Origin: Candidatus Moraniibacteriota bacterium
GTDB lineage: Bacteria > Patescibacteriota > Minisyncoccia > Moranbacterales > GCA-2747515
NCBI GenBank assembly: GCA_942490825.1
Contig: CALNYG010000003.1
Span: 4,105 to 68,104, forward strand
Direction of reading: 5' to 3'
Length of the DNA: 64,000 bases
In this document: positions 3,240 through 62,129 of the stretch, one piece after another
Numbering within the stretch: position 1 is the stretch's first letter
Layout: the number at the start of each line of letters is the position of its first letter
Notes under the pieces: generated by a model
What the model saw: only the letters and a program-made list of their open reading frames with translations
Databases searched by the model: none
What the model was told of the DNA's origin: nothing
Made by a program: the position numbers and the translations under genes

Positions 3240-3354
3240 AAATATTTTTTGGGTAGAGTTTTATGTGAGTTTAGAAAAAAGTTAAATTAATGTATAATAT
3301 TAAGTAGTTGATAAATTTAGTAATTAGCTAAATATTTTTTATTTAAAAATAAAT

Positions 3355-4473: not shown

Positions 4474-4581
4474 TTTTTGACGTTGGTGATTTATAATTTT
4501 AAAAAATAAAGATATTTATCAAAGTAATTTTTTATGGCTATAATAAATCTAAGTTTAATAAATATTTAAAAAAATAAAAAA

Positions 4582-8552: not shown

Positions 8553-8586
8553 AAAAGTTTTGTTGATGCTTAAATTTAAAATTTTT

Positions 8587-8676
8587 GTGATTTTCTGTGG
8601 GGGATTCCTGTCTGCCGACAGGCAGGCTTCACTTCTTTATTTTTTTAACAAAAAAATAAATCCGTTCAGAATGACA
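8587..8676. repeat. R2 half element with embedded hairpin module H (8607-8626)
   Basis: GTGATTTTCTGTGGGGGATTC-[CTGTCTGCCGACAGGCAGG]-CTTCAC...CCGTTCAGAATGACAG. Apart from the H insertion it is the rc of the copy at 58984-59050. Confidence 0.75.
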
Positions 8677-8703
8677 GAAGACTTTAAGAAAAACTATTAA
8701 CCC

Positions 8704-8750
8704 AAAAAGCCCGTGCGGCGAGTCTGCCTATCGGCAGACAGGCACTTTTT
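8704..8750 (+). repeat. R1 box, long form (with CTGCCTATCGGCAGACAGGC hairpin and T-run)
   Basis: AAAAAGCCCGTGCGGCGAGTCTGCCTATCGGCAGACAGGCACTTTTT. Confidence 0.85.
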
Positions 8751-8864
8751 AAAATAAAAAAAACTTTTAACTTAACTTAAATTAAAGATAAAGATTTTCC
8801 AACTATTGACAAAATAAAAATAAAATGTTATAGTTGATGGTTAACTTAGCATTAAAAATATTAA

Positions 8865-9893
8865 ATGAAAAAATATTTACCAACAATTATAGTATTTATC
8901 GTGGTTTTTGCGGTGATATATTTTATATTCGGAGGAGGAATGGTTCGGGTGCAGGCGTTGATGAAGGAAGAAGAAAAAACAACCATCACAACAACTCAGC
9001 TGATGGAAAAATTAACTGAGCAGAATTTTGGTATTTCGCCGTATTGGCTGGAGCGTTATGAAATCTCAGTTAGTTCAATGGAGGATGCACAGGCAGATGC
9101 AGATAGTGATGGCTTGACTTTAGAGCAGGAATATTTGTATTTAACTAATCCGTTCAGTGACGATACTGATGGTGATGGATATAAAGATGGTGAGGAAGTT
9201 GTAAATGGGAATTCACCAACAGGAAATGGAAAATTGGATATGCAACAAATTGCTAATAAACATTCAGAGGAAAGTTTAGCGGTTAAATTGGATGAAGATG
9301 ATCGTAATCAAGATGATTTTGATAATGATGGTTTGGATAATGATTTAGAAAAGACGCATGGAACTGATCCAAATAAAGCCGATACTGATGGTGATGGCTA
9401 TGATGATTTTACGGAAATTAAAAATGGTTACGATCCAGTGGCTTCTGGTGAAGTTCGTCCAACTGTAGAAATCGAAATTGATAAAATTGGTGTTAATGCT
9501 CCAGTTATTCTAGCTGTTGATAGCTCAGAGGAGGCTTTGCAGGATAATTTGGAGAGTGGCGTGGTTCATTATCCGAAAACAGCGATGCCTGGTCAGCGGG
9601 GTAATGTTTATATTGCAGGACATAGCAGTAATTATTCTTGGTCAACTGGGAGTTATAATTATATTTTTCAGGGATTGAATGGTTTAAGTGTTGGTGATAA
9701 AATTACTTTGAAAGTTAAGCAGAAAAATGGGAAGACTTTGACTTATGAATATGAGGTGAGTGAGAAGTTGGAAGTGGAGGCTGATGATCCGCGGATTTTT
9801 TCTAATACTCAATCTCAGATTTTGACTTTGACGACTTGTTGGCCGTTGGGCACAAGTAATAGACGATTAATGATTAAGGCTTATTTGATTTAG
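8865..9893 (+). CDS. Sortase-family transpeptidase fused to thrombospondin type-3-like Ca-binding repeats
   Basis: N-terminal TM. Four D-x-D-x-D-G-type repeats (DSDGLT, DTDGDGYKDGEE, DNDGLDND, DTDGDGYDDFTE). C-terminal sortase motifs are YIAGHSS (His), LTLTTC (Cys) and NRRLMIKA (Arg). Confidence 0.75.
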   Translation: MKKYLPTIIVFIVVFAVIYFIFGGGMVRVQALMKEEEKTTITTTQLMEKLTEQNFGISPYWLERYEISVSSMEDAQADADSDGLTLEQEYLYLTNPFSDDTDGDGYKDGEEVVNGNSPTGNGKLDMQQIANKHSEESLAVKLDEDDRNQDDFDNDGLDNDLEKTHGTDPNKADTDGDGYDDFTEIKNGYDPVASGEVRPTVEIEIDKIGVNAPVILAVDSSEEALQDNLESGVVHYPKTAMPGQRGNVYIAGHSSNYSWSTGSYNYIFQGLNGLSVGDKITLKVKQKNGKTLTYEYEVSEKLEVEADDPRIFSNTQSQILTLTTCWPLGTSNRRLMIKAYLI

Positions 9894-26181: not shown

Positions 26182-27342
26182 ATGAAAAAAAGTTTACTTA
26201 TAATGCCTTTTATTTTGTTGGTGTTTTGTGCAATATCACCAGCTAAAAAAGAAAGTATTGATGAAGAGGGAAAAGAAAATATTTTGGAGTCTTTTCAGTC
26301 TGTTATAAACATTGAAAATCAAAATATTAAGGTGCCAACAGTAGTAGAAGTTCCAATTTCTTTCGAAAAAGAAGTTTTAAATAGCGTGGCAGTAGTAGAT
26401 AATTCAAATGAATTATTTTTACCAAATTTAGTTGTTTCTAACGATGAAACTAAAAAAGTAATATGGAATGTTTTGGATGAAGTAACTGGAAAAGCTCAGC
26501 AATTGATTGATAAAAATAATGATACTTATAAGGAATATGCTATTTCTAATGACGGTAAAATTAGCAATGTTGCTCTAAAGGTTTCATCTACAAATCAATT
26601 GATTGAGACTTCTTCACTGACTTTTAATTTTGATAGATATGTAGCTTTACCAAAAACCATTCAGATTTCTGTTTATGATAACGAAAGCCAAGCTGATAAA
26701 ATTATTTTGGCGAAAACTTCCATGAAGTCTAATACAGTTAATTTCCCAAAAACTTCAGGTGAGAGTTTTAAAATTGAATTGGAATATTCACAGCCATTGC
26801 GAATTCGTGAAATAAGTTTTAATCCGACTAACTTACAGCATTCAAGTAAGTCTGTTAGATTTTTAGCTCAGCCAAATAAATCTTATAAAATTTATTACGA
26901 CGCTGATCTTTATGTAAAAGCTGAAACTGGAGAAATGCCAAATTTACGGGGTGATAAGGATATTTTAGTGGTTGAAAATTTTCAAAGCAATTTAAATTAT
27001 ATTTATAAAAAGTCAGATTCTGACAGCGATGGTATTCCGGATGAAATAGATAATTGTGTAAAAATAGCAAATAAAGATCAAGAGGACATTAATAAAAATG
27101 AGAGAGGGGATGTTTGTGATGACTTTGATCGGGATGGCGTTTTAAATGCGGATGATAATTGTCCAAATGATCCAAATCGTTATCAAAAAGATGAGGATGT
27201 TGATGGGATTGGTGATATTTGTGATGAAGATGAGAGTCGATTTTTTGCAAAATATTCTTGGCTAGCTATGACTTTAATTGTTATTGTTGGTTTCGTGGTG
27301 GTAGCTTTGTTTTTGATAACTTTCAAAAAGGAGACTGATTAA
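26182..27342 (+). CDS. Secreted protein with thrombospondin type-3 repeats and C-terminal TM anchor
   Basis: Signal peptide. DSDSDGIPDEIDNC, DFDRDGVLNADDNCPNDPN and DEDVDGIGDICD repeats. C-terminal hydrophobic helix plus KKETD. Confidence 0.6.
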   Translation: MKKSLLIMPFILLVFCAISPAKKESIDEEGKENILESFQSVINIENQNIKVPTVVEVPISFEKEVLNSVAVVDNSNELFLPNLVVSNDETKKVIWNVLDEVTGKAQQLIDKNNDTYKEYAISNDGKISNVALKVSSTNQLIETSSLTFNFDRYVALPKTIQISVYDNESQADKIILAKTSMKSNTVNFPKTSGESFKIELEYSQPLRIREISFNPTNLQHSSKSVRFLAQPNKSYKIYYDADLYVKAETGEMPNLRGDKDILVVENFQSNLNYIYKKSDSDSDGIPDEIDNCVKIANKDQEDINKNERGDVCDDFDRDGVLNADDNCPNDPNRYQKDEDVDGIGDICDEDESRFFAKYSWLAMTLIVIVGFVVVALFLITFKKETD

Positions 27343-31776: not shown

Positions 31777-31945
31777 AAAATAAATCAAGACGAATGCCTA
31801 ATAGGTATTCGTCTTGTGCTATAGCTAACTTCATTTATCAGGGAGATACTTTTGCAAGACAGTCACTTGCAACTTCTCAGCAATTCTTGCAAATAATATA
31901 TTAGGAATAATTTTTTTATTAGGATTGATTTCCACTACTTTTTTT

Positions 31946-32716
31946 GGTATTGCTACCAAACTATAGATAATGTAAAATGAATAGGTAATTAAATACCTAA
32001 AAACAAAAAAATGAAAATTAAATGCCCTCATTGCAATAATAAGAATTATGTTAAAAATGGTAAAGTAAATAAAAAACAAAGATATCTATGTAAAGACTGT
32101 AGCTATAACTTTTCTAGATTTACAAAAAGAGGAAAACCTAAAGAAATTAAGAAAAAAGCAATTGAAATGTATTTAGAGGGACTAGGATTTAGATCAATAG
32201 GAAGAATACTGAAAGTTAGTAACGTTAGTATATTAAGATGGGTAAAAAAGCAAATAAAAAATTAAGGAATATTTTAAAAAGTAAAAAAGAAGTAAAATAT
32301 TGGAAAATAGAAAAAATGGAATTAGATGAAATGTGGCATTTTGTGTTAAAAAAAAAAAAAGCCTGGATTTGGCTTGCAGTTGATAGATCTAGTAAAATAA
32401 TAATTGATTTCGTGATAGGGACAGAGAGGTGAAAAAACTGGAAGAAAATTATGGGACAAAATCAAAAAAATTGATTGCGATAAATACTGTTCAGATCATT
32501 GGGATGTTTATAAAAAATTTTTACCAAAAGATAAGCACATTCAAACAAAAGCAGAGACTTTTACAGTTGAAGGAATGAATAATCAATTAAGACATTGTAT
32601 AGCAAGATTTCATAGGAAAACTCATTGTTATTCTAAAAGTATTGAAATGGTTGAATATACAATCTTGCTATTCATGCACAGAGAAATTGCTATTTCTATA
32701 TTTGAGTAGCAATACC
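31946..32716 (+). mobile_element. IS1-family insertion sequence, copy 1 (degenerate)
   Basis: 771 bp with terminal IRs GGTATTGCTAC.../...GTAGCAATACC. Flanked by the 8-bp direct repeat CTTTTTTT (31938-31945 and 32717-32724). About 99 percent identical to copy 2 except for 3 indels. Confidence 0.9.
32011..32707 (+). pseudogene. IS1 InsA/InsB transposase, disrupted by indels
   Basis: Differences relative to copy 2: A6 versus A7 at 32244-32249, A13 (32348-32360) versus A8GA6, and one extra base at about 32425. The reading frame is broken into 3 pieces. Confidence 0.8.
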
Positions 32717-32920: not shown

Positions 32921-34210
32921 TTATTTTCTTAAAAATTTGAAGTAAGTCAAAATTAAAGCACTTGATCCCATAAAGCTTGAAGTTGTAGAAAAAATAATTG
33001 CCGTTGCAGTAATTCCGTAAGCTGGAATAAAAATATAATTTAAAGTAACGCTTAAAATAATTGCAATAAATGTTATAACTGCAGGAGTTTTTGTATAACC
33101 AGCACCGTTCCAGATTGAAGCAAGTACAAAAAAAATCGTTCCGAAAATCGTTCCGCCAATCATTAAAGGAATCAATCCTCCGGCATCATAAAATTTATTT
33201 CCATAAAGTAAATTAATAAATAAATCAGAGAAAAATATTAAGATTACAGAAATTGGAATTAAAGTTGCAAAAAGTAATGCAATAATTTTCGTGACTAATT
33301 TTTTTATTTTTTTGTGATCGCCATTTGATTTTAAATTTGAGATTGTAGGAAAGAGAATAAAAGTTAAGGCAAAAACTAAATAGTAGGGAATTAAAGAAAT
33401 TGTCATCGCAGAATCATAAATTCCAACAAAATAATCATCTTTTAAAAATATTTTAATTAAGTAAATATCTGTTCTAGTAAAAAATTCATAGAACAATGTA
33501 AAAAGTATAAAAACTCTGGCATAAGAAATAATTGATTGCCAGGGATATTTTTCTTCGCTAATTTCTGAAGATTTTTTTAAGTTTTTTTGAGAAAGTTTAA
33601 AATCTTTGTAAATAAAAATTTCGATTAAAATTGCAACGCAAAAAACGGAAAGTGGTGCTAAGATCGCTCCCCAAAATGCACCGTTCAATTGAAAAGAATA
33701 AGTTAAACCAACGATCCAAATTATTCTAAAAATTCCACGGGAAGTTTTTAAAGCGGTCATTGCTTGAAATCTTTTTAATCCGTTGAAATATAAAACGTGA
33801 AAAGATGATAATGAAAAAGCGGGAATTATTAAGGAGCTGAATTGAAAAAGTGGAATTAATGTTGGATCATTAAAAAATTTAGCTATAAGTGGGGCAGAAA
33901 AATAGAAAGCTAAGGTTAAAAATGTGATTATGTAAAATTGTAATTTGGCTGCGGTTTTTTTTATTGCTTGAACGATGACGAAATTATCTTTATTTTCGCT
34001 AATTCTTTTTGCCATGGCAGTGGGAATACTGCGTCCGACTAAAACAATTATCATTGTAGTAAAGCCGATGACTAAAGTGTAACGTCCGTATTCTTCTACG
34101 TTGAGAAGTCGTCCTAAACTGGATTTGATGATGTAACCTGAAACGTTATAAATGAATTCTGCTGTGAGTAATAGTAGGAATGAGAATGTCAATGTTTTTT
34201 TGAATTTCAT
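32921..34210 (-). CDS. Polysaccharide/lipid-linked oligosaccharide flippase (MOP/Wzx-like)
   Basis: 429 aa with about 12 or more TM helices and the typical architecture of the oligosaccharide flippase family. Confidence 0.6.
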   Translation of the reverse strand: MKFKKTLTFSFLLLLTAEFIYNVSGYIIKSSLGRLLNVEEYGRYTLVIGFTTMIIVLVGRSIPTAMAKRISENKDNFVIVQAIKKTAAKLQFYIITFLTLAFYFSAPLIAKFFNDPTLIPLFQFSSLIIPAFSLSSFHVLYFNGLKRFQAMTALKTSRGIFRIIWIVGLTYSFQLNGAFWGAILAPLSVFCVAILIEIFIYKDFKLSQKNLKKSSEISEEKYPWQSIISYARVFILFTLFYEFFTRTDIYLIKIFLKDDYFVGIYDSAMTISLIPYYLVFALTFILFPTISNLKSNGDHKKIKKLVTKIIALLFATLIPISVILIFFSDLFINLLYGNKFYDAGGLIPLMIGGTIFGTIFFVLASIWNGAGYTKTPAVITFIAIILSVTLNYIFIPAYGITATAIIFSTTSSFMGSSALILTYFKFLRK

Positions 34211-34230
34211 TGAGTATTTTTAATTTTAAT

Positions 34231-34276
34231 AAAAAGTGCCTGTCTGCCGATAGGCAGGCTCGCCGCACGGGCTTTT
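34231..34276 (-). repeat. R1 box, long form
   Basis: The rc reads AAAAGCCCGTGCGGCGAGCCTGCCTATCGGCAGACAGGCACTTTTT. It ends about 20 nt before the flippase ATG. Confidence 0.85.
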
Positions 34277-34279
34277 ATT

Positions 34280-34399
34280 TATTATAGCGAAATTTGAGTT
34301 TTTACGCCATTGACATTGTTATTTTTTTGTGATTAAATTAAGCGTTGGGGAAAAAGGTTCCCAACCTTGTTCTTATTATTTTAATTTTAGAGGTTTGTT
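34280..34399 (+). promoter_or_regulatory. Shared promoter plus 5' leader module, copy A
   Basis: TATTATAGCGAAATTTG...TTGACA (34310), 17 nt, extended -10 TGATTAAAT, then leader hairpin GTTGGG...CCCAAC. Homologous to 35762-35890. Confidence 0.6.
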
Positions 34400-34618: not shown

Positions 34619-34736
34619 TGGTACTGCAAAATAAAAGGTGAATGAATGGGGGACTTGGATTACTTGTCCCTCATTTCAAAAATTTGTAGGTAATTTTTTA
34701 AAATTGTCTTTAGATTTTTGGAAAAACTTTAGCTTT

Positions 34737-34818
34737 GTGATTTTCTGTGGGGGATTCTTCACTTCGCTCCGCTCCCCTGAACCATACGGTGCAGGGCTCC
34801 GCTACGTTCAGAATGACA
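34737..34818. repeat. R2 half element (right-arm type)
   Basis: GTGATTTTCTGTGGGGGATTCTTCAC...CGTTCAGAATGACA. Confidence 0.75.
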
Positions 34819-34893
34819 GGAAAACTTTAAAAATTTTTTTAAGCTAAATTATCTTTAAGTATTTCAAAAACTTTTTCTTTGGAAACACACCAA

Positions 34894-35018
34894 TGCCATT
34901 TCGACTGGAGCGTAGCGGAATGGAGAAATCTCAAAGTTTGCAGAAGATTATAGAGTTTTGAGATCTTTCCACTTCATATTTTAAAACTTTGTTTAAAAAT
35001 ATTCCGGTCAAGATGACA
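34894..35018. repeat. R2 element, variant b (TGCCATTTCGACTGG ... CCGGTCAAGATGACA)
   Basis: Contains GGAGCGTAGCGGAATGGAGAAATCTCAAAG and the inverted TTTTGAGATCTTTCC. The left half is nearly identical to the copy at 51750. Confidence 0.75.
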
Positions 35019-36436: not shown

Positions 36437-36611
36437 AAGAAAAAAACGAACAATTGGCAGTGTTATCTGATTGTTCGTTTCAAAAATTTCGAGATAATTT
36501 TAAAAGATTGTCTTTAGATTTTTGAAAAAACTTTTGTTGAATTTTGAATTGAAAAATGTGAACTTAAAATTTTGTGTAGGGATTTGTCAGTGGTAAGTCC
36601 CTTACGGTTAT

Positions 36612-36659
36612 GTATCATAGCCCGTGCGGCGAGCCTGCCTATCGGCAGACAGGCACTTT
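36612..36659 (+). repeat. R1 box, long form
   Basis: GTATCATAGCCCGTGCGGCGAGCCTGCCTATCGGCAGACAGGCACTTT. Confidence 0.85.
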
Positions 36660-36740
36660 AAAAATCATAAATTAAGTGAGATATCTTGAGATCAGTATTG
36701 ATTTTTATTGAGAATTATATATAATAGAAAGAGTTATTAA

Positions 36741-36811
36741 TGGGCTGTAGCCAAGTGGTAAGGCATCGGGTTCTGATCCCGCGACCGTAGGTTCGAATCC
36801 TACCGGCCCAA
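36741..36811 (+). tRNA. tRNA-Gln (anticodon CUG)
   Basis: Hand-folded. Acceptor stem TGGGCTG/CGGCCCA (U1-A72 as in bacterial tRNA-Gln). D arm GCC-AAGTGGTAA-GGC. Anticodon loop TTCTGAT. T arm GTAGG-TTCGAAT-CCTAC. CCA is not encoded. Confidence 0.85.
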
Positions 36812-36838
36812 CAGAAATTTTAAACTTTTTATTTTTCC

Positions 36839-37003
36839 TGTCATTCTGAACGAAGCGTAGCGTAGTGAAGAATCCCCCAAGGAAAAGCACGAAACTTTAA
36901 AATTAAAGTATCAGAAAAAATTACGGGGATTCTTCACTGCATAAAATTTTTTACAAAAATTTTCTTACGCCTGTCTGCCGACAAAGGCAGGTTCAGAATG
37001 ACA
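36839..37003. repeat. R2 element, full copy with embedded H hairpin (36970-36991)
   Basis: TGTCATTCTGAAC-GAAGCGTAGCGTAGTGAAGAATCCCC ... GGGGATTCTTCAC ... [CCTGTCTGCCGACAAAGGCAGG] TTCAGAATGACA. Ends 11 nt before the truB ATG. Confidence 0.85.
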
Positions 37004-45205: not shown

Positions 45206-45512
45206 TAGAAATAAATAAAGGATAATAAGTATGCTTTATTTATTCTAAATTTAAAATAGATCTTAAGGATTGTGCGACGTTAACTTTTCTAATAAAATTT
45301 TATGCCACATTTAAATTATTATTTAGATTATTGTGCTGAAGCTTTTATTGTTTTTGAAAATAAAGTTCTTTTACGGATTCATGATAAATATGACATTTGG
45401 TTAAGTGTTAGTGGTCCATATCGAACCAAATGAAGATCCTAATGTAGCTATCAAAAGAGAAATTTTAGAAGAGATTGGTTTAAATGACATGGAAATTTTT
45501 ACAAAAAATAAT

Positions 45513-46285
45513 GGTATTGCTACCAAACTATAGATAATGTAAAATGAATAGGTAATTAAATACCTAAAAACAAAAAAATGAAAATTAAATGCCCTCATTG
45601 CAATAATAAGAATTATGTTAAAAATGGTAAAGTAAATAAAAAACAAAGATATCTATGTAAAGAATGTAGCTATAACTTTTCTAGATTTACAAAAAGAGGA
45701 AAACCTAAAGAAATTAAGAAAAAAGCAATTGAAATGTATTTAGAGGGACTAGGATTTAGATCAATAGGAAGAATACTGAAAGTTAGTAACGTTAGTATAT
45801 TAAGATGGGTAAAAAAAGCAACTAAAAAATTAAGGAATATTTTAAAAAGTAAAAAAGAAGTAAAATATTGGAAAATAGAAAAAATGGAATTAGATGAAAT
45901 GTGGCATTTTGTGTTAAAAAAAAGAAAAAAGCCTGGATTTGGCTTGCAGTTGATAGATCTAGTAAAATAATAATTGATTTCGTGATAGGGACAAGAGGTG
46001 AAAAAACTGGAAGAAAATTATGGGACAAAATCAAAAAAATTGATTGCGATAAATACTGTTCAGATCATTGGGATGTTTATAAAAAATTTTTACCAAAAGA
46101 TAAGCACATTCAAACAAAAGCAGAGACTTTTACAGTTGAAGGAATGAATAATCAATTAAGACATTATATAGCAAGATTTCATAGGAAAACTCATTGTTAT
46201 TCTAAAAGTATTGAAATGGTTGAATATACAATCTTGCTATTCATGCACAGAGAAATTGCTATTTCTATATTTGAGTAGCAATACC
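45513..46285 (+). mobile_element. IS1-family insertion sequence, copy 2 (apparently intact)
   Basis: 773 bp with IRs GGTATTGCTAC. The 8-bp target duplication AAAATAAT is at 45505-45512 and 46286-46293. Confidence 0.9.
45578..46278 (+). CDS. IS1 transposase InsA / InsAB' (programmed -1 frameshift expected)
   Basis: InsA-like Zn finger CPHC...CKEC plus HTH. The overlapping -1 frame encodes the DDE part (WIWLAVDRSS...DHWDVYKKF...). The frames overlap at the A8GA6 run 45916-45930. Confidence 0.85.
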
Positions 46286-47148: not shown

Positions 47149-48072
47149 TTAATACACGATTTCAACTTCTTCTTTCAATTGAACATCGAACTCGTCTCTC
47201 ACTCGCATTTTTGCCATGGAAACTAATTGCAAGACCTGATCATAATTTCCTTCACCTAAATTTATAAAATAATTAGCTTGATTTTCTCCTGTAGTAATAT
47301 TACCAATTTTCTTTCCTTGCATTCCTGCTTTATCTAATAACCAACCAGCCGGCACTCTTCCCTTAATACACTTAGTGTTTTTTTCTTGTTCGAATATTTG
47401 TTGAACTCGTTTACTAGCCACTGGGTTTGCAAAAAATGAACCTGCTGTTTTTACGTTCTGCAATTGCAAGCTGTTTCTTTTTTCTATAATTTCTTTCATG
47501 ATTTTTTTAGACTCTTCTTTATTTCCAATTTCTAATTTGAAAGTTGCTTTTAAAATTATCCAGTTTTTGTCTTTTTTGAAAAGGCTATTTCGATATTCAA
47601 GTTCACATTTTTCTTTTGAAAAAGTTTTGACCTCACCTGTTTCTATATTTAAAGCTTCTGCCTGAGTGATTACATTTATTATTTCTGTTCCAAATGCTCC
47701 GGCGTTTCCTCGGACTGCCCCACCGACTGTTCCGGGAATTCCAAATAGTTTCTCCATTCCTGTGAGGTTTTGTTCAACAGTTAAATTTACTAGTTGACTA
47801 AGCATCGTTCCAGCTCCTGCAGTGACTTCTAAAGTATTAAATTCAATTTCTCTAATATCTATTTTTATTACCAAACCATCAAATCCTAGATCAGTAAATA
47901 AAACGTTACTTCCTCCTGCTAAAATAAAATATTTTAAGTTTTTTTCTTTAGCAAAATTTAAAGCTTCTTTTAATTCATTAACATTTTTTACTGTAACAAA
48001 ATATCGTGCTTCCCCACCGATGTTAAAAGTATTGTATTTTTTTAATGAAATATTTTCTTGAATATTTAACAT
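47149..48072 (-). CDS. murB: UDP-N-acetylenolpyruvoylglucosamine reductase
   Basis: NTFNIGGEARYF, ILAGGSNVLF and GIPGTVGGAVRGNAGAFG blocks. Confidence 0.85.
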   Translation of the reverse strand: MLNIQENISLKKYNTFNIGGEARYFVTVKNVNELKEALNFAKEKNLKYFILAGGSNVLFTDLGFDGLVIKIDIREIEFNTLEVTAGAGTMLSQLVNLTVEQNLTGMEKLFGIPGTVGGAVRGNAGAFGTEIINVITQAEALNIETGEVKTFSKEKCELEYRNSLFKKDKNWIILKATFKLEIGNKEESKKIMKEIIEKRNSLQLQNVKTAGSFFANPVASKRVQQIFEQEKNTKCIKGRVPAGWLLDKAGMQGKKIGNITTGENQANYFINLGEGNYDQVLQLVSMAKMRVRDEFDVQLKEEVEIVY

Positions 48073-48275
48073 AAGTCTTATTTTATTTTTTAATATTTTT
48101 TCTAAACTTTTTGATACATTGCACTACATTATTTTCTTAGTACTTTCTTTAAGAATGTTTAACAAAAATACAATTTATTAGTATGTTTTTTACTTTATAA
48201 ATTTTTCCTTATAAGTATTTTAATCTTTAAAAAGTGGTAGGTACTGCATAAAAAAATAATTTAATATAATTAAAA

Positions 48276-49649
48276 TTATTCCTCAGTAATATCATCTTTA
48301 ATCAAATCATAAACTTTATAAATATCACCAGCTCCTAACGTTACAAAAACCTCATCTTTGGTTAATTTTTCTTTCATAAATTTAGCTAGTTCTTCGATGT
48401 CTTTTAAATTATGAGCTTTATTTTGAATACCTTGATTAATTTCATCAACTAAATCTTGAGAAGAAATACCTCCTTGTTCTTCTCGAGCACTGCCATAAAT
48501 ATCTAAGATAATTACCTCACTAGCAATATCTAACATTCTTGCAAATCCCTCCAGCAAAGCCTTTGTTCGTGAAAAAGTATGAGGATGAAAAGCTGCTACA
48601 ATACGTTTATTTAGAAAAGTTTCTCGTAAGGTATTTAAAGTTGCTCTAATCTCTTCAGGATGGTGTGCATAATCATCATAAAGCAAAGTTCCATTTAAAT
48701 CACCTATTTTTTCTAATCTTCGCTTTGTGCCCAAAAAATTAGCTACACCTTGATTACTTAGTTCAGTGTATCCAGTTAATACAAAAGACATCACCCAGCT
48801 CGCCACTGCATTTAAAGCGTTATGTAAGCCAAGTAAATTTATTGTGATTTCATATTCTTTATTTTCGTAAGTAAACTTGATTTTTTGTTTGTCCTTAATT
48901 AGTTTACGTTCTGTAATATGAACATCAACACTATGCTTTGTTCCATAAGTAATAACCTTACAGTTTGCTTTTCGTGCTATATCAATAACATCACGGTCAT
49001 CTCCAAAAGCCACTAAAAATCCATCTGATGAAATTCGTTTTACAAAATCAATAAAAGCTTTTTTATATTCATCAAAATCTTTAAAAAAATCTGGATGATC
49101 AAAATCAATACTGGTTAAAATTGCATAATTTGGATGATAATGTGCCAGTTTATTTTGATATTCATCTGCTTCAATAATTAAAAATTCATCTCCTCCTTTA
49201 TGAAATCCACCTAGAGACCATCCTATGACAGGAGCACCAACAATGACTGTAGGATCTTTTTGACAAGATATTAAAGCATGTGCTGTGAATCCAGTAGTAG
49301 TTGTTTTTCCATGTGTTCCGCATACTGCAATTGTATAAAATTCTTTTGTTACTTTTCCTAGTGCTTCAGGATAAGATACTAATTTTATATTTCTTTTTTT
49401 AATTTCAGCAATCTCCAAATTCGAATCATTGAAAGCAGTTGAATAAACCGCAAAATCAATTTCTTTTGGAATGTTCTCTATAGCAAAAATTTTAAAAATT
49501 TTAATACCTTCTTTTTGTAATGGAGTATCATAAAAACCATCTCCATCATCTGAACCGCTAACATTATAGCCTCTTGATTTATAAAATTGTGCTAATGCGG
49601 ATGTTCCCGCTCCACCTATTCCAATTATGTAAATATTTAATTTTTTCAT
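48276..49649 (-). CDS. murC: UDP-N-acetylmuramate-L-alanine ligase
   Basis: IGIGGAGTSALAQ, SGSD and GTHGKTTTT blocks. 457 aa. Confidence 0.85.
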   Translation of the reverse strand: MKKLNIYIIGIGGAGTSALAQFYKSRGYNVSGSDDGDGFYDTPLQKEGIKIFKIFAIENIPKEIDFAVYSTAFNDSNLEIAEIKKRNIKLVSYPEALGKVTKEFYTIAVCGTHGKTTTTGFTAHALISCQKDPTVIVGAPVIGWSLGGFHKGGDEFLIIEADEYQNKLAHYHPNYAILTSIDFDHPDFFKDFDEYKKAFIDFVKRISSDGFLVAFGDDRDVIDIARKANCKVITYGTKHSVDVHITERKLIKDKQKIKFTYENKEYEITINLLGLHNALNAVASWVMSFVLTGYTELSNQGVANFLGTKRRLEKIGDLNGTLLYDDYAHHPEEIRATLNTLRETFLNKRIVAAFHPHTFSRTKALLEGFARMLDIASEVIILDIYGSAREEQGGISSQDLVDEINQGIQNKAHNLKDIEELAKFMKEKLTKDEVFVTLGAGDIYKVYDLIKDDITEE

Positions 49650-50628: not shown

Positions 50629-50830
50629 TTTTCACAACACAATTTTAAAAATTAAAAAACTCTTTTCGTTTAGAAAGGAGTTTTTTTAGAAACGTAATTT
50701 TATAAAAGTTTTTTTATTTGTAAATTTAAAAGATGAGACTTTTTTTAAAAGAGTTCTACATTTCTTTTCTAATTCGTCAAATTATAAGTCACAACTAAAA
50801 AACTATTAATTTACATTATTAAATACTAGC

Positions 50831-50903
50831 AAACGGCAAAAGATCCTGCTGAAAATAAAACAGGATCTAATTTTTGTGGTAGGTTTTGGTAGAAAGTTAA
50901 CAT
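50831..50903 (-). pseudogene. Copy of the first ~24 codons of lgt (no continuation)
   Basis: 73 nt identical, except for one base, to 52666-52738 (the true lgt 5' end). Its ATG overlaps the stop of paralog 2 (TAATG). Confidence 0.8.
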
Positions 50904-51700
50904 TAGTAAACTTTTACAGATTCAACCAAATTAATGAAATCTTTTTCACTTATTTCTGGTAATTCATTATTTGAACCAAAAGCAAAATTTAATCCAGACA
51001 ATTTTTCATTTTTTTCTAAATTACAAATAGCATAATAAACTTTACCATCAAACCATTCTTTTGATGTAGAATAGGCACACATATTTGAAGAAGATACTTT
51101 ATAAGTATCTTTTGAGCTAGATAAATCAATAATTATTTTTTTTGAATTGTTAGGATAAGATGATTTAATTTTAAATCCTTGTGGATCAATCAAAGAGCCA
51201 CCTCTTTCGGGACCATTTACCCAATAATCATTATGCAATCCCCCTAAATATGCATTTTTCAAATTGGAAAAAACAAAATATTCTGATTTATTAGAGCCAT
51301 CAAATTTAGACTTATTAACCTCACCCCAATTTTTAGGATAATCAAAAGAAATGCCTAATTCATCATTTTTATAAGTAATTAATTCTTCAGTATTCTCACT
51401 TGGAGTAGTATTATTAACTGTCACCTCATCTTTTTTTATTTCAACATTTTCAGCAACTTTTCCTTCAACCTCTTCCTTAATCACAACATCCCTAACTTTA
51501 GCCTGATCATTCATTTCCTCAAACTTATTCATCTGATCTTGCAAATCATTAGTCCTTTGTTCTAAAAGTTGATTATTATGCCAAAACCACGCAACTAAAG
51601 ATACCAATCCAATGATAACTAAAACCACTATTATACTTATAAACTTATGCATTGCAGAACTCAAAAAAGTTCCCACTTTGCTCGGAGTATTTTCTTCCAT
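50903..51700 (-). CDS. Membrane-anchored protein, MEENTPSKV-family paralog 2
   Basis: The first ~76 aa differ from paralog 3 at only 4 positions. The C-terminal domain is unrelated. Confidence 0.6.
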   Translation of the reverse strand: MEENTPSKVGTFLSSAMHKFISIIVVLVIIGLVSLVAWFWHNNQLLEQRTNDLQDQMNKFEEMNDQAKVRDVVIKEEVEGKVAENVEIKKDEVTVNNTTPSENTEELITYKNDELGISFDYPKNWGEVNKSKFDGSNKSEYFVFSNLKNAYLGGLHNDYWVNGPERGGSLIDPQGFKIKSSYPNNSKKIIIDLSSSKDTYKVSSSNMCAYSTSKEWFDGKVYYAICNLEKNEKLSGLNFAFGSNNELPEISEKDFINLVESVKVY

Positions 51701-51749
51701 TTTTTTTACTTTTAATTTATTTATTAGACTTTTTAAAAAACCTGCCCTG

Positions 51750-51835
51750 TGTCATTTCGACTGGAGCGTAGCGGAACAGAGAAATCTCAAAGTATCAGAA
51801 AAAAACAGGGTTTTGAGGTTTCTCGACTTTGCCAT
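51750..51835. repeat. R2 element variant b, right half degenerate
   Basis: TGTCATTTCGACTGGAGCGTAGCGGAACAGAGAAATCTCAAAG ... TTTTGAGGTTTCTCGAC. Confidence 0.65.
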
Positions 51836-51907
51836 CACTACACTCGAGAAGATAATTAGAAGTTTTAAGAAGTTTGTTAAACTTAGATTTATTATAGCAA
51901 TAAAAAA

Positions 51908-52738
51908 TTACTTTGAAAAATATTTTGATTTCTTCAAAATAATAAAACTTAATATTGCTCCCACAAAAAACATTCCTAAAGACAAAACCTGTCCCATACT
52001 TAAATTCAAAAACACAAAACCTAAATGTTCATCAGGCTGTCTAAAAAATTCAATGACAAAACGAACCGCTGGATATAACATTAAATATAAACCACTCAAT
52101 ATTCCTTTCGGAAGTTTTTTATTTCGCAAAGACCAGAGAATTATAAAAATAAACAAGCCCTCTCCAAAAGCTTCATATAATTGAGACGGATGCCGTAAAA
52201 AGTTATCTTCATTGAAATACATTCCCCAAGGTTTTTCAGTTGCTCGTCCAACTAATTCACTGTTGAAAAAATTTCCTAATCTGCCAAAAAGAAAGCCTAA
52301 CGGAAAAGCTGGAACGATAAAATCCACCAATTCAAAAAAATCTTTTTTGTATCTGCGAACTGTCCACAATAAAGCTAAAATAACTCCGATTATTCCGCCG
52401 TGATAACTCATCCCGTAAATACCTGTCCACTCTCCTGAAGTGAAGTTATAAGGTGAAATTACTTCTAAAGGTCGACTGACAAAATAAGCAAAATCGTAGA
52501 ATAAAATGTAACCTAATCGTCCACCAATCAAAGCTCCAATAAATCCATTGAGCAACACATCTTGAATAAAATTTATTGTATATTTAGTTTCTTTTTTCTT
52601 AATTCTCCAAACTAGCAATAAATATGTCACTACTAAAACCATCAGCCACATTACTGAATACCAGTAAACGGCAAAAGATCCTGCTGAAAATAAAACAGGA
52701 TCTAATTTTTGCGGTAGGTTTTGGTAGAAAGTTAACAT
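51908..52738 (-). CDS. lgt: Prolipoprotein diacylglyceryl transferase
   Basis: YGMSYHGGIIG, GRLGNFFNSELVG, PWG and RHPSQLYEAFGEG blocks. Confidence 0.85.
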   Translation of the reverse strand: MLTFYQNLPQKLDPVLFSAGSFAVYWYSVMWLMVLVVTYLLLVWRIKKKETKYTINFIQDVLLNGFIGALIGGRLGYILFYDFAYFVSRPLEVISPYNFTSGEWTGIYGMSYHGGIIGVILALLWTVRRYKKDFFELVDFIVPAFPLGFLFGRLGNFFNSELVGRATEKPWGMYFNEDNFLRHPSQLYEAFGEGLFIFIILWSLRNKKLPKGILSGLYLMLYPAVRFVIEFFRQPDEHLGFVFLNLSMGQVLSLGMFFVGAILSFIILKKSKYFSK

Positions 52739-52742
52739 TATT

Positions 52743-53498
52743 CTATTTTTGGTAAATCTCTACTTTATCAAATTTAGAATAACAATCAGGAGCTCCACCA
52801 CCAGTTTCTAATGCATAAGTTTCAACATGTAAAATTATCTGATTTTCAATAGAAGAATCTAAAACATTATTAGTTAATTCTTTTGAATAAAATTCATCTT
52901 CTCGAGCACTATTATAAACAATCTTATTTTCTTCTAAACAACCCAGTAAATAACCGTATTCTTTATTGTAAAATTCATCAAAACCAAATTTCTTTTTAAA
53001 ATCATTTATTTTTCCATAATCAGTTACAAAAAATGGAACTTCTTTTTGTGTTACGCCGCCCCGATTTTTTCTATTTTCAATCTTAGCATAACCTTTAATA
53101 TAAAAATCACCTTCATAACCATAATTTACTTTTTTAAAACTTCCCTCTGGTAAAACAATCTTCTCCATTTTATTATTATTTTCAGTAGCTATGACAGTAT
53201 CATTCTTTGAACTGCTATTTTGGGAGCCTTCTTGAATAGAGTTTTTTACATTTTCATCATTCCTTACTCCTTCCTTAATCACAACATCCCTAACCTTAGC
53301 CTGATCATTCATTTCCTCAAACTTATTCATCTGATCTTGCAAATCATTAGTCCTTTGTTCTAAAAGTTCATTATTATGCCAAAACCAAGCAACTAATCCC
53401 ACCAAAGCTATAATAACTAAAACCATTATTATACTTATAAACTTATGCATTGCAGAACTCAAAAAAGTTCCCACTTTGCTCGGAGTATTTTCTTCCAT
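52743..53498 (-). CDS. Membrane-anchored protein, MEENTPSKV-family paralog 3
   Basis: Conserved N-terminus as above, with a unique C-terminal domain. Lies directly upstream of the genuine lgt. Confidence 0.6.
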   Translation of the reverse strand: MEENTPSKVGTFLSSAMHKFISIIMVLVIIALVGLVAWFWHNNELLEQRTNDLQDQMNKFEEMNDQAKVRDVVIKEGVRNDENVKNSIQEGSQNSSSKNDTVIATENNNKMEKIVLPEGSFKKVNYGYEGDFYIKGYAKIENRKNRGGVTQKEVPFFVTDYGKINDFKKKFGFDEFYNKEYGYLLGCLEENKIVYNSAREDEFYSKELTNNVLDSSIENQIILHVETYALETGGGAPDCYSKFDKVEIYQK

Positions 53499-53544
53499 TT
53501 TTTTTATTTTAAATTATTTATGTTTTGTATTATAACAAACTTTC

Positions 53545-54780
53545 CTATTTATATAAAGGAAATTTTGCACACAAAGCTTTAACTTCCTTATGAATTTTTT
53601 TCAATTCCTTTTCATTATCATGATTTTCAATTGCATCATTTATCCATTTTGCAATTTGTTTAACTTCTTTTTCTTTCATTTTTCGTGTCGTCAAAGCTGG
53701 TGTACCAATTCTAATTCCACTCGGATCAAATGGACTTCTTGGATCATCAGGGATAACATTTTTATTGATAGTAATTCCAATTTTATCTAAAGCCACTTCC
53801 GCCTCTTTTCCAGTAACGCCTTTACTACCAAAAACATCAACTAAAACCATATGATTATCTGTCCCTTTAAACATTAAATCAAATCCATAAAATTTTAATT
53901 CTTTTTCTAAAACTTTAGCGTTTGCGATAACTTGCTTTGCGTAAGTTTGAAAACTTGGCTTCAAAGCTTCCCCAAAAGCCACCGCTCGAGCTGCAATATT
54001 ATTCATGTGCGGACCACCTTGAAATCCAGGAAAAGTCGCTTTATCAATTGCTTTGGCAAGTTCTTTTTTACACATAATCATTCCACCCCGAGGACCTCGA
54101 AGGGTTTTATGTGTCGTGGTTGTTACAATATCAAAATAAGGCACTGGATTTGAAATTGCCTTTCCTGCAATTAAGCCTGCAATGTGGGCAATATCAATCA
54201 TCAAAATTGCATTCACTTTATTTGCGATTTGTCGAAATCTTCTATAATTTAAATTTCTAGTATAAGCTGAAAAACCTGCTAAAATCATTTGGGGCTTTTC
54301 TTTGATCGCCATTTTTTCTAAAGCGTCGTAATCGATTTTTCCGTTTTTACCTGTTTTGTAGCCTATAAAATTATAAATTTGTGCAGAAAGTGTAACCGGA
54401 TGTCCATGGGTTAAATGTCCTCCATGTGATAAATCCATTCCTAAAATTTTATCGCCTGGCTTTAAAACTGCACTGTAGGCAATCATATTTGCAGGAGCTC
54501 CAGAATGTGGCTGTACGTTTACATGTTGTGCTTTGAAAAGTTTTTTCGCTCGCTCGATTGCTAAATTTTCAACAACATCGGTAAAATCTTGCCCGCCATA
54601 ATATCTTTTTCCAGGGTAACCTTCGGAATATTTATTTGTGAAAACTGTTCCTAATGTTTCTAAAACTGCTTTTGATACATAATTTTCTGAAGCAATCATT
54701 TCTAGTCCTTCTTCTTGCCTCTTTTCTTCATTTTTGATTGCTTTATAAATTTTTGAGTCTGTCTTTTTTAGATTTTTCAT
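53545..54780 (-). CDS. glyA: Serine hydroxymethyltransferase
   Basis: LIASENYVS, the HGGHLTHG loop and the TTTTHKTLRGPRGG PLP-Lys motif. Confidence 0.9.
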   Translation of the reverse strand: MKNLKKTDSKIYKAIKNEEKRQEEGLEMIASENYVSKAVLETLGTVFTNKYSEGYPGKRYYGGQDFTDVVENLAIERAKKLFKAQHVNVQPHSGAPANMIAYSAVLKPGDKILGMDLSHGGHLTHGHPVTLSAQIYNFIGYKTGKNGKIDYDALEKMAIKEKPQMILAGFSAYTRNLNYRRFRQIANKVNAILMIDIAHIAGLIAGKAISNPVPYFDIVTTTTHKTLRGPRGGMIMCKKELAKAIDKATFPGFQGGPHMNNIAARAVAFGEALKPSFQTYAKQVIANAKVLEKELKFYGFDLMFKGTDNHMVLVDVFGSKGVTGKEAEVALDKIGITINKNVIPDDPRSPFDPSGIRIGTPALTTRKMKEKEVKQIAKWINDAIENHDNEKELKKIHKEVKALCAKFPLYK

Positions 54781-54804: not shown

Positions 54805-55818
54805 TTATTTTAACTTTTTAAGTAATTCTAAACTTAGTTCACTTGCTGGAAAAACACCATCTATATTTTGTAAAAAATTTTTAGAATTATAAACTTCATC
54901 AGCAACAAATAAATAAACATCATGTTTTCTTATAGAGTTAGCTATATTTTCCCTTAAATCAGTTCCTAAGGTAATTTCAATCATTACATCTATTTTTGAC
55001 ATCTGAGCTGTTTTAATAAATTGCTTATATCTTTCCCGCAATGTTCTTTTTGCTCCTATTCCAAAAGTTCTACCTTTCAATTCAAAGAAAAAATCAAATT
55101 CAGTTGAGTCATCATTTTTATCATGTATTTTTTCAATTTTATCATTAGAAATTCCCATAGTTATTAAAATATTCTTTATTCTATCCTCATAACTTGAGCC
55201 TGCTGAACTTGTAATTGATTGATTTACACTTTCAGAAAAAAGCAGCATAAAAATTTGATTTGCCTCGACGCCTTTTTTTGAAAGCTTATTATAATTAATA
55301 ATTAAATTTTTAATAAAAATCTGTGAACTTTCTGCTATAAAATTAGTTTGATTTTTTTCTAATTTTTCAAAAAACAATAATGAAAGTAAAGCTCCACTAA
55401 CTCTTCTACTATACGCAACTTGAATAGACTTTTTATCATAGGTTAGAGATAGTTGATTTAATCCTTCTAACTCCTGAGCCTTTACCGCTTGTTTAATTTT
55501 TGCTTCACTCAATAACAAATCTCTAAACATGTTTAATTTTAAAGAAAATATAAATATATCTATTGTTTCTTCATTGATATCATCAATTACATCTGTAATT
55601 AAATAAATATCTTTTCTTTTGATTTTTTCCTCAATATAAGAAATAAAAAGTTCTTTTAAAATTTTAGCCTTAACATTTTTATTTGAAAAATATATAGATA
55701 AAATATCCCCCGTTTGATTATCTGTCAACTTAGCTTGCGTTATTTTTTTAAGAAAATTATAAAAAACTAAATTTATATCAAAAACATTTTCTTTTATTTG
55801 TAGTTTATTTATTTTCAT
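54805..55818 (-). CDS. Probable type II restriction endonuclease (partner of adjacent C5-MTase)
   Basis: Lies 13 nt downstream of the MTase on the same strand. The C-terminal EFDFFFELKGRTFGIGAKRTLRERYKQ resembles a D...ExK nuclease core plus the AK(T/R)TxK(E/D)R(W/Y)xQ block seen in several type II enzymes. Confidence 0.5.
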   Translation of the reverse strand: MKINKLQIKENVFDINLVFYNFLKKITQAKLTDNQTGDILSIYFSNKNVKAKILKELFISYIEEKIKRKDIYLITDVIDDINEETIDIFIFSLKLNMFRDLLLSEAKIKQAVKAQELEGLNQLSLTYDKKSIQVAYSRRVSGALLSLLFFEKLEKNQTNFIAESSQIFIKNLIINYNKLSKKGVEANQIFMLLFSESVNQSITSSAGSSYEDRIKNILITMGISNDKIEKIHDKNDDSTEFDFFFELKGRTFGIGAKRTLRERYKQFIKTAQMSKIDVMIEITLGTDLRENIANSIRKHDVYLFVADEVYNSKNFLQNIDGVFPASELSLELLKKLK

Positions 55819-55831
55819 ATAATATTAATAA

Positions 55832-56803
55832 TTATTTTTTTAATTCTTTAATTTTAGGAATAATTTTTTTTGCTAAAGCTCGAATAACAGGAACCGCCAC
55901 ACTGTTGCCACATTGTCTGTATGCTTGTGTATCACTAACTGGAAAAAGATAATCTTCAGGATAACCCTGTAATCTCAAACCCTCTCGAGGTGTAATCTTT
56001 CTCGGATTTTTTCCTTTTTGTTCAATTAAAATTTCTGAACCATCTTTATAATATCTTGCACTCATTGTGCTTGTATACTCCGAATCTCCATTAAATATAG
56101 AATAACCGAAGCCATTACCTTTTTCTTTGTGCTCTTTTTTTCTTCTTTGATGTCCTTGCCATAGTCTATCCGACAAAGTATACTTATTATCTACTTTTTT
56201 TTCTAAAATGTCACCAAGTCTTGTTTTAATTCCACTTTCTTTTGGATATTCAAAATCAATATCTTTATCTAAAAAACCAATTATATAAATACGCTCTCTA
56301 TTTTGAGGAACGCCAAAATTTCTAGCATTAATAACTTTAGAAAAAATTTTATATCCTAGTTTTTCTAAATTATCCTTTACAACTTCAAAAGTATTTCCTT
56401 TATTATGACTTTTAAATCCTTTAACATTTTCTAAAAAAATTACCTTTGGCTTATGTTTTTTTATTATTCTAGCTATATCAAAAAATAATGTCCCTCTCGT
56501 ATCGCTAAATCCTTTCTTTAATCCTGCATTAGAAAAAGGTTGACAAGGAAATCCTGCTAAAAGTAAATCAAAACTAGGTATTTCTTCTTCGCTAATTTTC
56601 GTTATATCACCTTTTGGTAATTCATTAAAATTTTCTGAATACGTTTGTTGTGCAAATTTATCAAATTCAGAAGTAAAAACACATTCCCCTCCTAATTCTT
56701 CAAAAGGTATTCTTATGCCACCCAAACCCGCAAATAAATCTATAAAAGTAAAATCTTTTTTATCACTTTGCCAACTTTTATTTTTTGGAAACAATGAATT
56801 CAT
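55832..56803 (-). CDS. DNA (cytosine-5)-methyltransferase
   Basis: FIDLFAGLGG (motif I), GFPCQPFS (motif IV), ENV (motif VI), QNRERIY (VIII) and CGNSVAVPV (X). Confidence 0.9.
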   Translation of the reverse strand: MNSLFPKNKSWQSDKKDFTFIDLFAGLGGIRIPFEELGGECVFTSEFDKFAQQTYSENFNELPKGDITKISEEEIPSFDLLLAGFPCQPFSNAGLKKGFSDTRGTLFFDIARIIKKHKPKVIFLENVKGFKSHNKGNTFEVVKDNLEKLGYKIFSKVINARNFGVPQNRERIYIIGFLDKDIDFEYPKESGIKTRLGDILEKKVDNKYTLSDRLWQGHQRRKKEHKEKGNGFGYSIFNGDSEYTSTMSARYYKDGSEILIEQKGKNPRKITPREGLRLQGYPEDYLFPVSDTQAYRQCGNSVAVPVIRALAKKIIPKIKELKK

Positions 56804-58901: not shown

Positions 58902-58946
58902 AAAAGTGCCTGTCTGCCGATAGGCAGGCTCGCCGCACGGGCTTTT
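58902..58946 (-). repeat. R1 box, long form
   Basis: The rc reads AAAAGCCCGTGCGGCGAGCCTGCCTATCGGCAGACAGGCACTTTT. Confidence 0.85.
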
Positions 58947-58983
58947 CACCATTTAAAATTTTTTGAAATTCTAAACAGTTGCC

Positions 58984-59050
58984 TGTCATTCTGAACGAAG
59001 TTAATTTTTTATAAAAAATTAACGCAGTGAAGAATCCCCCACAGAAAATT
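58984..59050. repeat. R2 half element (left-arm type)
   Basis: TGTCATTCTGAACGAAG-TTAATTTTTTATAAAAAATTAA-CGCAGTGAAGAATCCCCCACAGAAAAT. Confidence 0.75.
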
Positions 59051-59083
59051 AGATAGCTTTAAAATTATATTATTATTCACTTT

Positions 59084-61101: not shown

Positions 61102-61236
61102 TGTCATTTCCGCGTAGGCGGAAATCCAGGTACATAAAACTTTAAGTCAGCTTATACACAAAAGTTCATCTACAAATTTTAAGTTTAATTCTCCTGGATT
61201 CCTTTCCCCTTCGCTACGCTACGGACGGGAATGACA
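61102..61236. repeat. R2 element, variant c (inverted relative to 29841 copy)
   Basis: TGTCATTTCCGCGTAGGCGGAAATCCAGG ... CCTGGATTCCTTTCCCCTTCGCTACGCTACGGACGGGAATGACA. Confidence 0.8.
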
Positions 61237-61252
61237 TACAAACTTTAATTTT

Positions 61253-61279
61253 AAAAAGCCCGTGCGGCGAGCACAAAAA
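61253..61279 (+). repeat. R1 box, short form
   Basis: AAAAAGCCCGTGCGGCGAGCACAAAAA. Confidence 0.85.
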
Positions 61280-62044: not shown

Positions 62045-62090
62045 GTGCCTGTCTGCCGATTAGGTAGGCTCGCCGCACGGGCTATGATAT
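62045..62090 (-). repeat. R1 box, long form (variant hairpin)
   Basis: The rc reads ATATCATAGCCCGTGCGGCGAGCCTACCTAATCGGCAGACAGGCAC. Confidence 0.8.
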
Positions 62091-62129
62091 ATAATTTTAA
62101 ATTTCCTGTCATTCTGAGTAGATTTATCT

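Follow-up and report, generated by a model that had tools for sequence, protein, structure and literature searches.

A 64-kb stretch of DNA from a Candidatus Moraniibacteriota bacterium (assembly GCA_942490825.1, contig CALNYG010000003.1, forward-strand positions 4,105 to 68,104; hereafter the window) carries three paralogous genes, here termed par1, par2, and par3 and collectively para, in which a conserved 5' module is joined to three unrelated 3' parts. The window is AT-rich, at ~29% GC. Repeats were located with a repeat finder, and the open reading frames (ORFs) of the window were listed and scanned against Pfam. On the minus strand, ORF calls gave the order glyA (53545-54780), par3 (52743-53498), lgt (51908-52738), and par2 (50903-51700); par1 lies on the plus strand at 4582-5325. 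The housekeeping gene lgt has a single intact copy, which matched the Pfam LGT profile (PF01790) at full length (4.6e-66; 223 bits against a cutoff of 24.9; profile positions 1-239 of 240). The lgt 5' end directly follows each paralog, as the intact gene after par3 and as remnants after par1 and par2.

All three paralogs encode a common N-terminal tail, transmembrane (TM) segment, and helical stalk of ~76 amino acids. For par2 and par3, this module is part of a 246-nt direct repeat at 94% identity (51472-51717 vs. 53270-53515) that contains the conserved 5' coding blocks of both genes (51473-51700 and 53271-53498, minus strand), and repeat and identity comparisons placed the end of the par2 block at the motif GGGATGTTGTGATTAAGGAA. 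Four of the first 76 residues differ between the two proteins (V25M, G31A, S34G, and Q44E), exactly as stated in the original prediction, which had been drawn up from the letters of this stretch and whose coordinates and minus-strand gene order all held. It had further described the two proteins as unrelated past residue ~76, and neither BLASTP (E=12) nor hhalign (probability <1%) connected them beyond that point. The repeated 3' blocks are copies of the first 66-140 nt of lgt. After par2, this copy forms a 103-nt direct repeat at 91% identity (50813-50915 vs. 52648-52750) in which 73 of the first 75 nt match, so the description of it as near-perfect was apt, and the remnant (50813-50903, minus strand) holds a 25-codon ORF whose ATG overlaps the par2 stop as TAATG. 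Boundary motifs were recovered in 0 of 100 shuffles, and the repeats were far above chance. The third gene, par1, repeats the same architecture: the 5' block is followed by a 66-nt lgt 5' remnant (5332-5397, plus strand; ~90% identity, stop at codon 6), detected through inverted repeats against lgt, folding, and a terminator scan, and is preceded by a copy of the lgt 3' end and intergenic leader. That upstream copy forms an inverted repeat at 85% identity (4494-4572 vs. 51863-51941) and, with the promoter scan and alignment to the distal par2 leader and to the leaders of related loci, was delimited to 4494-4581 on the plus strand. Divergent segments set between two blocks of high identity, as originally described for par2 and par3, are thus also a feature of par1.

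The predicted product of each gene is a signal-anchored type II membrane protein whose short cytoplasmic tail leads into a single TM helix and a helical stalk, followed by a low-complexity linker and an extracytoplasmic domain that would be displayed at the cell surface. Cysteine is absent from residues 1-76 of every paralog and ortholog, and there is no lipobox. AlphaFold2 confidently predicted that the TM segment and stalk form one continuous, long N-terminal helix (residues 9-79), with a predicted local distance difference test (pLDDT) score of up to 94; its ectodomain models were poor (par1, pLDDT 53 from a 3-sequence alignment; par3, pLDDT 44 from a single sequence). The ectodomains of par1, par2, and par3 (types 1, 2, and 3) are mutually unrelated, with BLASTP E-values of 0.035 to 12 and hhalign profile-profile probabilities below 1%. 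We considered whether they could be diverged homologs and rejected this on the hhalign result, the remaining signal being a weak par1-par3 BLASTP match (E=0.035). Type 2 gave a partial match to PsbP_2 (PF18933; 30.3 bits against a cutoff of 27), in which residues 87-132 covered only profile positions 24-69 of 184, and searches for close homologs or, by sequence, a PDB relative found none. Neither type 1 nor type 3 had a match in Pfam, NCBIfam, or the PDB. For type 3, 40 relatives were retrieved at E<=1e-3, the best at 47% identity. This family of ~40 small proteins shares the motifs LPEGxF, GLGC, and GAPxCYSHF; most members bear a lipoprotein signal with a lipobox, and a few are TM-anchored. 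The closest TM-anchored relatives adjoin rpsB, gtrA, or nifS/nifU, and none adjoins lgt. The par3 ectodomain (52743-53270) and proteins P0006-P0044 appear to form an undescribed family of small secreted proteins of 170-250 aa, mostly lipoproteins, whose conserved features also include GYA and four to five cysteines.

A search of 5.8 billion clusters found the para family to be very narrow, consisting of the three window proteins, P0004, and P0005 only. P0004 is encoded in two Moranbacteria metagenome-assembled genomes (MAGs; GCA_030630955.1 and GCA_023133275.1; loci L001 and L003) and P0005 on one 6-kb contig in the European Nucleotide Archive (L004). Exact-protein look-ups of par2 and par3 returned no other contigs, leaving these proteins on one contig only. 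A genome scan with lgt recovered one clade member (L005), which was the same contig as L003, while the hits of a metagenome scan with the para alignment (L085-L087) were discarded as chance matches to an anti-sigma-like TM protein. In L001 and L003, P0004 lies in the order Fer4-para-lgt-holB-ftsQ, and in L004, P0005 lies in the order cvfB-...-glyA-para-lgt. Each is a single para-lgt pair with a type-1 ectodomain, so para-lgt was probably the ancestral pair of a small clade and type 1 the ancestral ectodomain. Para was absent upstream of lgt in the more distant Moranbacteria L006 and L007, where other genes were found.

Both para loci of the window have a syntenic counterpart in these relatives. 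Around par1, tblastx showed the window to be collinear with L001 (GT4, Fer4, ... par1, holB, ftsQ), which makes par1 the positional ortholog of P0004 in L001 and L003, except that the lgt body is absent; homology to the region upstream of L001 holB resumes at 5402, four bases past the 66-nt remnant. The par1 ectodomain is 65% identical to that of P0004 and 46% identical to that of P0005. Around par3, the window is collinear with L004, including cvfB, glyA (94% amino acid identity), lgt (83%, compared with 75% to L001 lgt), and an orthologous promoter. At this glyA-para-lgt site, however, the ectodomain is of type 3 in the window and of type 1 in L004, and therefore it was replaced between conserved flanks. 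Exchange is nevertheless not frequent, since the flanks of par2 and par3 still differ by 5-9%.

Each of the three genes is complete, having an ATG start and a promoter-like site. The promoter scan placed the site of par1 at 4516-4544 on the plus strand (TTATCA-17-TATAAT). That of par2 (51891-51919, minus strand) has its -35 (TTTTCA) in the last lgt codons and an extended -10 (TGcTATAAT). Both genes share a hybrid junction consisting of the lgt 3' end, TGnTATAAT, and the leader. Alignment showed the -10 and leader (TATAATAAnTCTAAGTTTAA...AAAAAATG) to be the ancestral para leader, homologous to those of L004 and L001, and the sequence upstream of the -10 to be lgt 3' sequence. Because of this mixed derivation, the par1 and par2 promoters are read as copies of a single junction that arose in a tandem para-lgt-para duplication. 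In contrast, par3 keeps a promoter of the L004 type within the glyA 3' end (53529-53557, minus strand), orthologous to the para promoter of that contig. Both the lgt-tip and glyA sites would function as promoters. In the par2 leader, a member of a dispersed intergenic repeat family resembling miniature inverted-repeat transposable elements (MITEs) at 51730-51860, named R2b in the original prediction, separates the promoter from the start codon; the par1 and L004 leaders are uninterrupted. This repeat folded no better than its shuffles (z=-0.9).

Codons 12-21 of lgt contain a 10-bp hairpin (AGATCCTGTT...CAGGATCT) followed by Ts. It is present in intact lgt (~52676-52703, minus strand), in the par2 remnant (~50841-50868, minus strand; fold and motif match), and in the par1 remnant (5367-5394, plus strand; -15.5 kcal/mol, z=-3.9), where it is followed by TTTTTT, and it folded in 3/3 copies with z-scores of -3.2 to -3.9. 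Two substitutions in the par1 remnant perfect the stem and give a longer T-run, of six; of the three copies, this alone was called by the terminator scan. In all three genomes with para upstream, lgt retains the hairpin, L004 having one compensatory change from G-C to A-U, whereas lgt of L007, a Moranbacteria genome without para, lacks it. These features are terminator-like and suggest a role as terminator or attenuator; at the coding start of lgt, the hairpin could possibly attenuate transcription and set the ratio of para to lgt expression. Because the shared flanks coincide with the promoter and hairpin signals, the repeated unit appears to be a whole transcription unit, from promoter to terminator-like hairpin. 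With a unit of this extent and loss of the redundant lgt bodies, the survival of exactly these lgt tips would be explained. The lgt remnants themselves are nonfunctional as genes (stop at codon 6 or 26) and likely act at the RNA or DNA level, as a terminator hairpin and a promoter -35.

Identity along the shared flanks changed abruptly. The first 81 nt of the coding sequence (4582-4662 in par1) were 98-99% identical among the three paralogs, compared with 62-74% to the P0004 and P0005 orthologs. Past nt 81, par1 was 65-67% identical to par2 and par3 (nt 82-240), as low as between genomes, whereas par2 and par3 remained ~94% identical up to nt 228. For par1 and par2, this step was from 80/81 to 104/159 matching positions (Fisher p=1e-10), with a longest perfect run of 60 nt (permutation p<=5e-5); across all run-length permutation tests, p ranged from <=5e-5 to 2.5e-4. 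The par2 remnant fell in the same manner, from 73/75 matches with lgt to 41/68 (Fisher p=1e-8), and both remnants carry substitutions specific to the window lgt (ATGTTAAC and AAATTAGATCCTGTTTTA) relative to L001 and L004. Synonymous positions were also identical in the homogenized tracts. The original prediction had named ordinary neutral divergence of the flanks in relatives as the observation that would count against exchange; instead, the comparison with relatives showed flanks that evolve in concert.

Mosaicism extended to the relatives. P0005 of L004 was 80-97% identical to par1 at alignment columns 150-195 and 93-97% identical to par2 and par3 at columns 195-240, where 34 consecutive nt match perfectly against a background of 67% identity (p<=5e-5), and its TM region was unrelated to all three paralogs. 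The type-1 ectodomain tree follows loci, with par1 nearer to P0004 than to P0005, and not the lgt and glyA relationships, while the linker, unlike the ectodomain, groups P0004 with P0005. Over ~40 nt of the linker-coding stretch (L001 6724-6764), these two genes are 96-100% identical despite a difference of ~19% in lgt, a further sign of inter-lineage recombination in para. Breakpoints this sharp and significant indicate that gene conversion and mosaic recombination acted on these genes, and the identity patterns require recombination subsequent to the duplications.

We scrutinized the window for machinery that could drive exchange, with Pfam scans of those ORFs of 110 aa or more that synteny had not already assigned. 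Neither a tyrosine or serine recombinase nor a reverse transcriptase was found among the ORFs of this size that were scanned or placed by synteny. The sole mobile-element enzyme was an IS1-type transposase, encoded by two identical 774-nt elements, the nearest ~5 kb away. No silent cassettes lacking a 5' end and no extra boundary motifs were found in the window, and since the boundary and lgt hairpin motifs occurred only at the known copies, the window holds no hidden silent cassettes. Three further candidates were set aside. An integrative element with its attachment site in the lgt 5' end was dismissed, as the 1.8-kb segment between the repeats contains lgt, the MITE-like repeat, and par2 only, with no integrase. 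Diversification by a diversity-generating retroelement was rejected on the lack of a reverse transcriptase among the window ORFs scanned or placed by synteny. A past inversion between par1 and par2, which would restore an ftsW-murG-...-murC-murB order, is not needed, the Fer4...par1-holB-ftsQ region being already collinear with L001.

We favor, with a probability of roughly 0.6, duplication of para-lgt followed by loss of lgt bodies with their tips kept, replacement of the ectodomain in two copies, and homogenization of the flanks by occasional conversion. Under this scenario, the ancestral para-lgt transcription unit of a small clade of Moranbacteria-like members of the Candidate Phyla Radiation (CPR) would have been duplicated both in tandem and, in one direction or the other, between its own locus and a second one. 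In the tandem para-lgt-para arrangement, the end of lgt would have supplied the -35 of the next para promoter, and the first ~70 nt of lgt, with hairpin and T-run, would terminate or attenuate transcription of para. Two loci would then have come to hold copies of such a unit, made up of the lgt 3' tip, promoter, para, and lgt 5' tip; the redundant lgt bodies were deleted, and the promoter and terminator within the tips may be the reason that these were retained. Presumably through recombination in the flanks, the ectodomain would have been replaced by a PsbP-like domain in par2 and by a domain from a family of small, mostly lipoprotein-type secreted proteins in par3, with par1 keeping the ancestral form. 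Gene conversion between copies and between lineages would have left the flanks nearly identical and the anchor region mosaic. The components of duplication, ectodomain replacement, and concerted evolution are supported by the synteny and identity patterns, and the order of these events is our best reconstruction.

Several observations weigh against this history. The promoter and terminator calls are consensus matches, and the hairpin copies in lgt and the par2 remnant have just a 4-T tail and fail the terminator scan. The hairpin is also partly automatic from the Lgt motif D-P...G-S, and similar hairpins occur in L006 and L061. The lgt 3' tip upstream of par1 is unaccounted for, as the relative has Fer4 directly upstream. 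Variation in constraint from site to site could inflate the run-length tests, and with just three clade genomes in the databases searched, the polarity of events is weakly constrained. Finally, given the BLASTP match at E=0.035, types 1 and 3 may share a fold, in which case extreme divergence rather than replacement would separate them.

The original prediction had weighed two explanations, cassette exchange or gene conversion of a surface-exposed domain and plain segmental duplication followed by C-terminal replacement, and each contributes to the history that we favor. An active system of surface variation, in which the 5' block and lgt-derived 3' block serve as arms and cassettes are exchanged among the three sites or with DNA of related cells, would account for the homogenization of both flanks with sharp breakpoints, the change of ectodomain at a syntenic site between related genomes, and the mosaic anchor region across lineages. 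A possible route is inversion of the 46 kb that separate par1 from the oppositely oriented par2 and par3: these genes lie on opposite sides of a switch in GC skew and gene strand at ~46 kb, so that inverting the segment would leave their orientation unchanged with respect to replication. Nevertheless, the window scans that recovered neither recombinase, reverse transcriptase, nor silent 5'-less cassettes, together with the presence of three complete genes, run counter to such a system, as do flanks diverged to the extent seen between par2 and par3 and by ~35% at nt 82-228 of par1, which point to rare exchanges with short tracts. Moreover, the sole intact lgt sits between direct repeats, such that many recombinants would delete it, and the proteins are confined to one contig. 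Flank concerted evolution and ectodomain replacement thus survive from the exchange explanation, and an active system is unlikely.

Plain duplication without gene conversion, in which flank identity simply records the age of a recent segmental duplication before C-terminal replacement, fits par2 and par3: their flanks are similar on both sides (~94-95% at the 5' end and 91% at the 3' end), with mismatches that are not significantly clustered (permutation p=0.11). It fails for par1: this gene occupies the ancestral locus, keeps the ancestral ectodomain, and has a stalk at 65% identity, yet it is 99% identical over its first 81 nt and promoter. It fails also for the par2 lgt remnant with its abrupt loss of identity. 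Both patterns call for a second, later homogenizing event, and although duplication with C-terminal replacement is part of the answer, we doubt that it is the whole. Assembly error, whereby strain alleles of one para-lgt locus were joined in tandem or at the wrong locus, has to be considered for a probable 149-kb MAG contig with no other record of these proteins, as repeats of 100-250 nt can mislead short-read assemblers. Yet each copy has unique and coherent flanks (unique DNA beyond a decayed remnant, a leader carrying the MITE, and collinearity with L001 to either side of par1), and the remnants are diverged and truncated rather than allelic full-length copies, which makes an artefact very improbable. 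A more speculative extension is that the para-lgt flanks act as portable homology arms, by which populations of probably episymbiotic ultrasmall bacteria could swap or acquire ectodomains at fixed expression sites and so vary their host-facing surface proteins without a recombinase. Conversion between copies, an inversion spanning the replication terminus, or DNA taken up from relatives might serve as routes, and the trapped intact lgt might stabilize the array against pop-out deletion, suggestions that we regard as tentative and unlikely.

Other features of the window were also recorded. The two IS1-family copies (31945-32716 and 45512-46285; 98-100% identical, 774 nt) lie in direct orientation 13.6 kb apart, with InsA-like (45578-45970) and DDE_Tnp_IS1 (45901-46278) ORFs, and one copy is located exactly at the switch in GC skew and gene strand. 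Cumulative GC skew peaks at ~46 kb, where genes switch from the plus to the minus strand, and the position looks like a replication terminus or other replichore boundary. Short GC-rich palindromic intergenic repeats, resembling MITEs or repetitive extragenic palindromes, form at least two families (...GCCCGTGCGGCGAGCCTGCCTATCGGCAGACAGGC... and ...TGTCATTCTGAACG..AGCGTAGCG..GTGAAGAATCCCCCAC...), with examples at 1754-1885, 8555-8760, 34182-34285, 34731-34937, 36608-36966, 51730-51860, 58902-59073, 61229-61274, and 62061-62095; the spacer between lgt and holB in the related MAG L001 has them as well. The division and cell wall (dcw) genes are split (2043-4473 vs. 47149-49649), with ftsW-murG on the plus strand just upstream of par1 and murC-murB on the minus strand just downstream of the par2 remnant, such that each breakpoint is marked by a para copy. 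A restriction-modification pair of type II (54805-56803, minus strand) occupies the interval between cvfB and glyA and comprises a C5 cytosine methyltransferase (2.4e-109) and a nuclease with weak similarity to EcoRII-C. The island adjoining the par3 locus is variable, because L004 carries MazG, a hydrolase, and a 263-aa ORF at this spot. Further cell-surface functions are represented by a fusion of a sortase with bacterial TSP3 repeats (8865-9893) and by another protein carrying such repeats (26182-27342).

The prevailing view of CPR bacteria (Patescibacteria) is that they live attached to host cells, and how their surface proteins diversify is poorly known. The locus offers a clean, small case in which one anchor module carries three unrelated extracytoplasmic domains and the flanks evolve in concert. 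If ongoing exchange were true, it would represent a simple, recombinase-free mechanism of surface variation in a reduced genome; as it stands, the locus records ordinary processes of evolution, namely duplication, domain shuffling, and gene conversion, and fragments of a housekeeping gene have apparently been reused as promoter and terminator. The locus is the footprint of duplication, domain replacement, and gene conversion rather than a demonstrated switching machine.

Comparable arrangements are known from the Vlp, Vsp, Vpma, and Vsa families of mollicutes and from the N-terminal paralogs of the Ureaplasma multiple banded antigen (MBA; UU172 element), in which a conserved 5' module is recombined with different surface domains (PMC3047005, PMC2268961). 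As in these families, a near-identical 5' module (94-99% among the three para genes) is placed on divergent C-terminal parts. The mollicute module comprises the leader and membrane-targeting N-terminus, and chimeras form by recombination in this conserved 5' part, likewise in host-dependent organisms with small genomes. However, the mollicute proteins are lipoproteins with a lipobox, whereas the para N-termini lack cysteine. The mollicute systems also rely on a dedicated site-specific recombinase with short inversion sites or on homopolymer tracts in promoters, usually with one promoter and many silent genes, unlike the three complete para transcription units and the window scans free of recombinases. 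By analogy, the para set would be functionally most like the mollicute variable families, without their defining lipobox, dedicated recombinase, and silent genes.

The para genes also resemble the orphan modules of polymorphic toxin, contact-dependent inhibition (CDI), and Rhs loci, with a conserved N-terminal part and unrelated C-termini that meet at a sharp junction (...RDVVIKE / GGGATGTTGTGATTAAGGAA). In those loci, C-terminal domains are swapped by homologous recombination at a conserved junction motif. Unlike polymorphic toxins, para has no toxin/immunity pair; its products are ~250 aa, full length with their own start, and have lgt or an lgt remnant downstream, and their ectodomains are similar not to toxins but to PsbP-like proteins or families of small secreted lipoproteins. 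A third likeness is to conversion between tuf genes, rRNA operons, or Neisseria pilE and pilS, where identity is greater within than between genomes and tract boundaries are sharp. In para, by contrast, the flanks alone are homogenized, the central segments being nonhomologous and not convertible piecemeal, and there is no silent archive of the pilS kind. The para set is best regarded as another case, here from a CPR genome, in which paralog duplication has been combined with domain shuffling and gene conversion.

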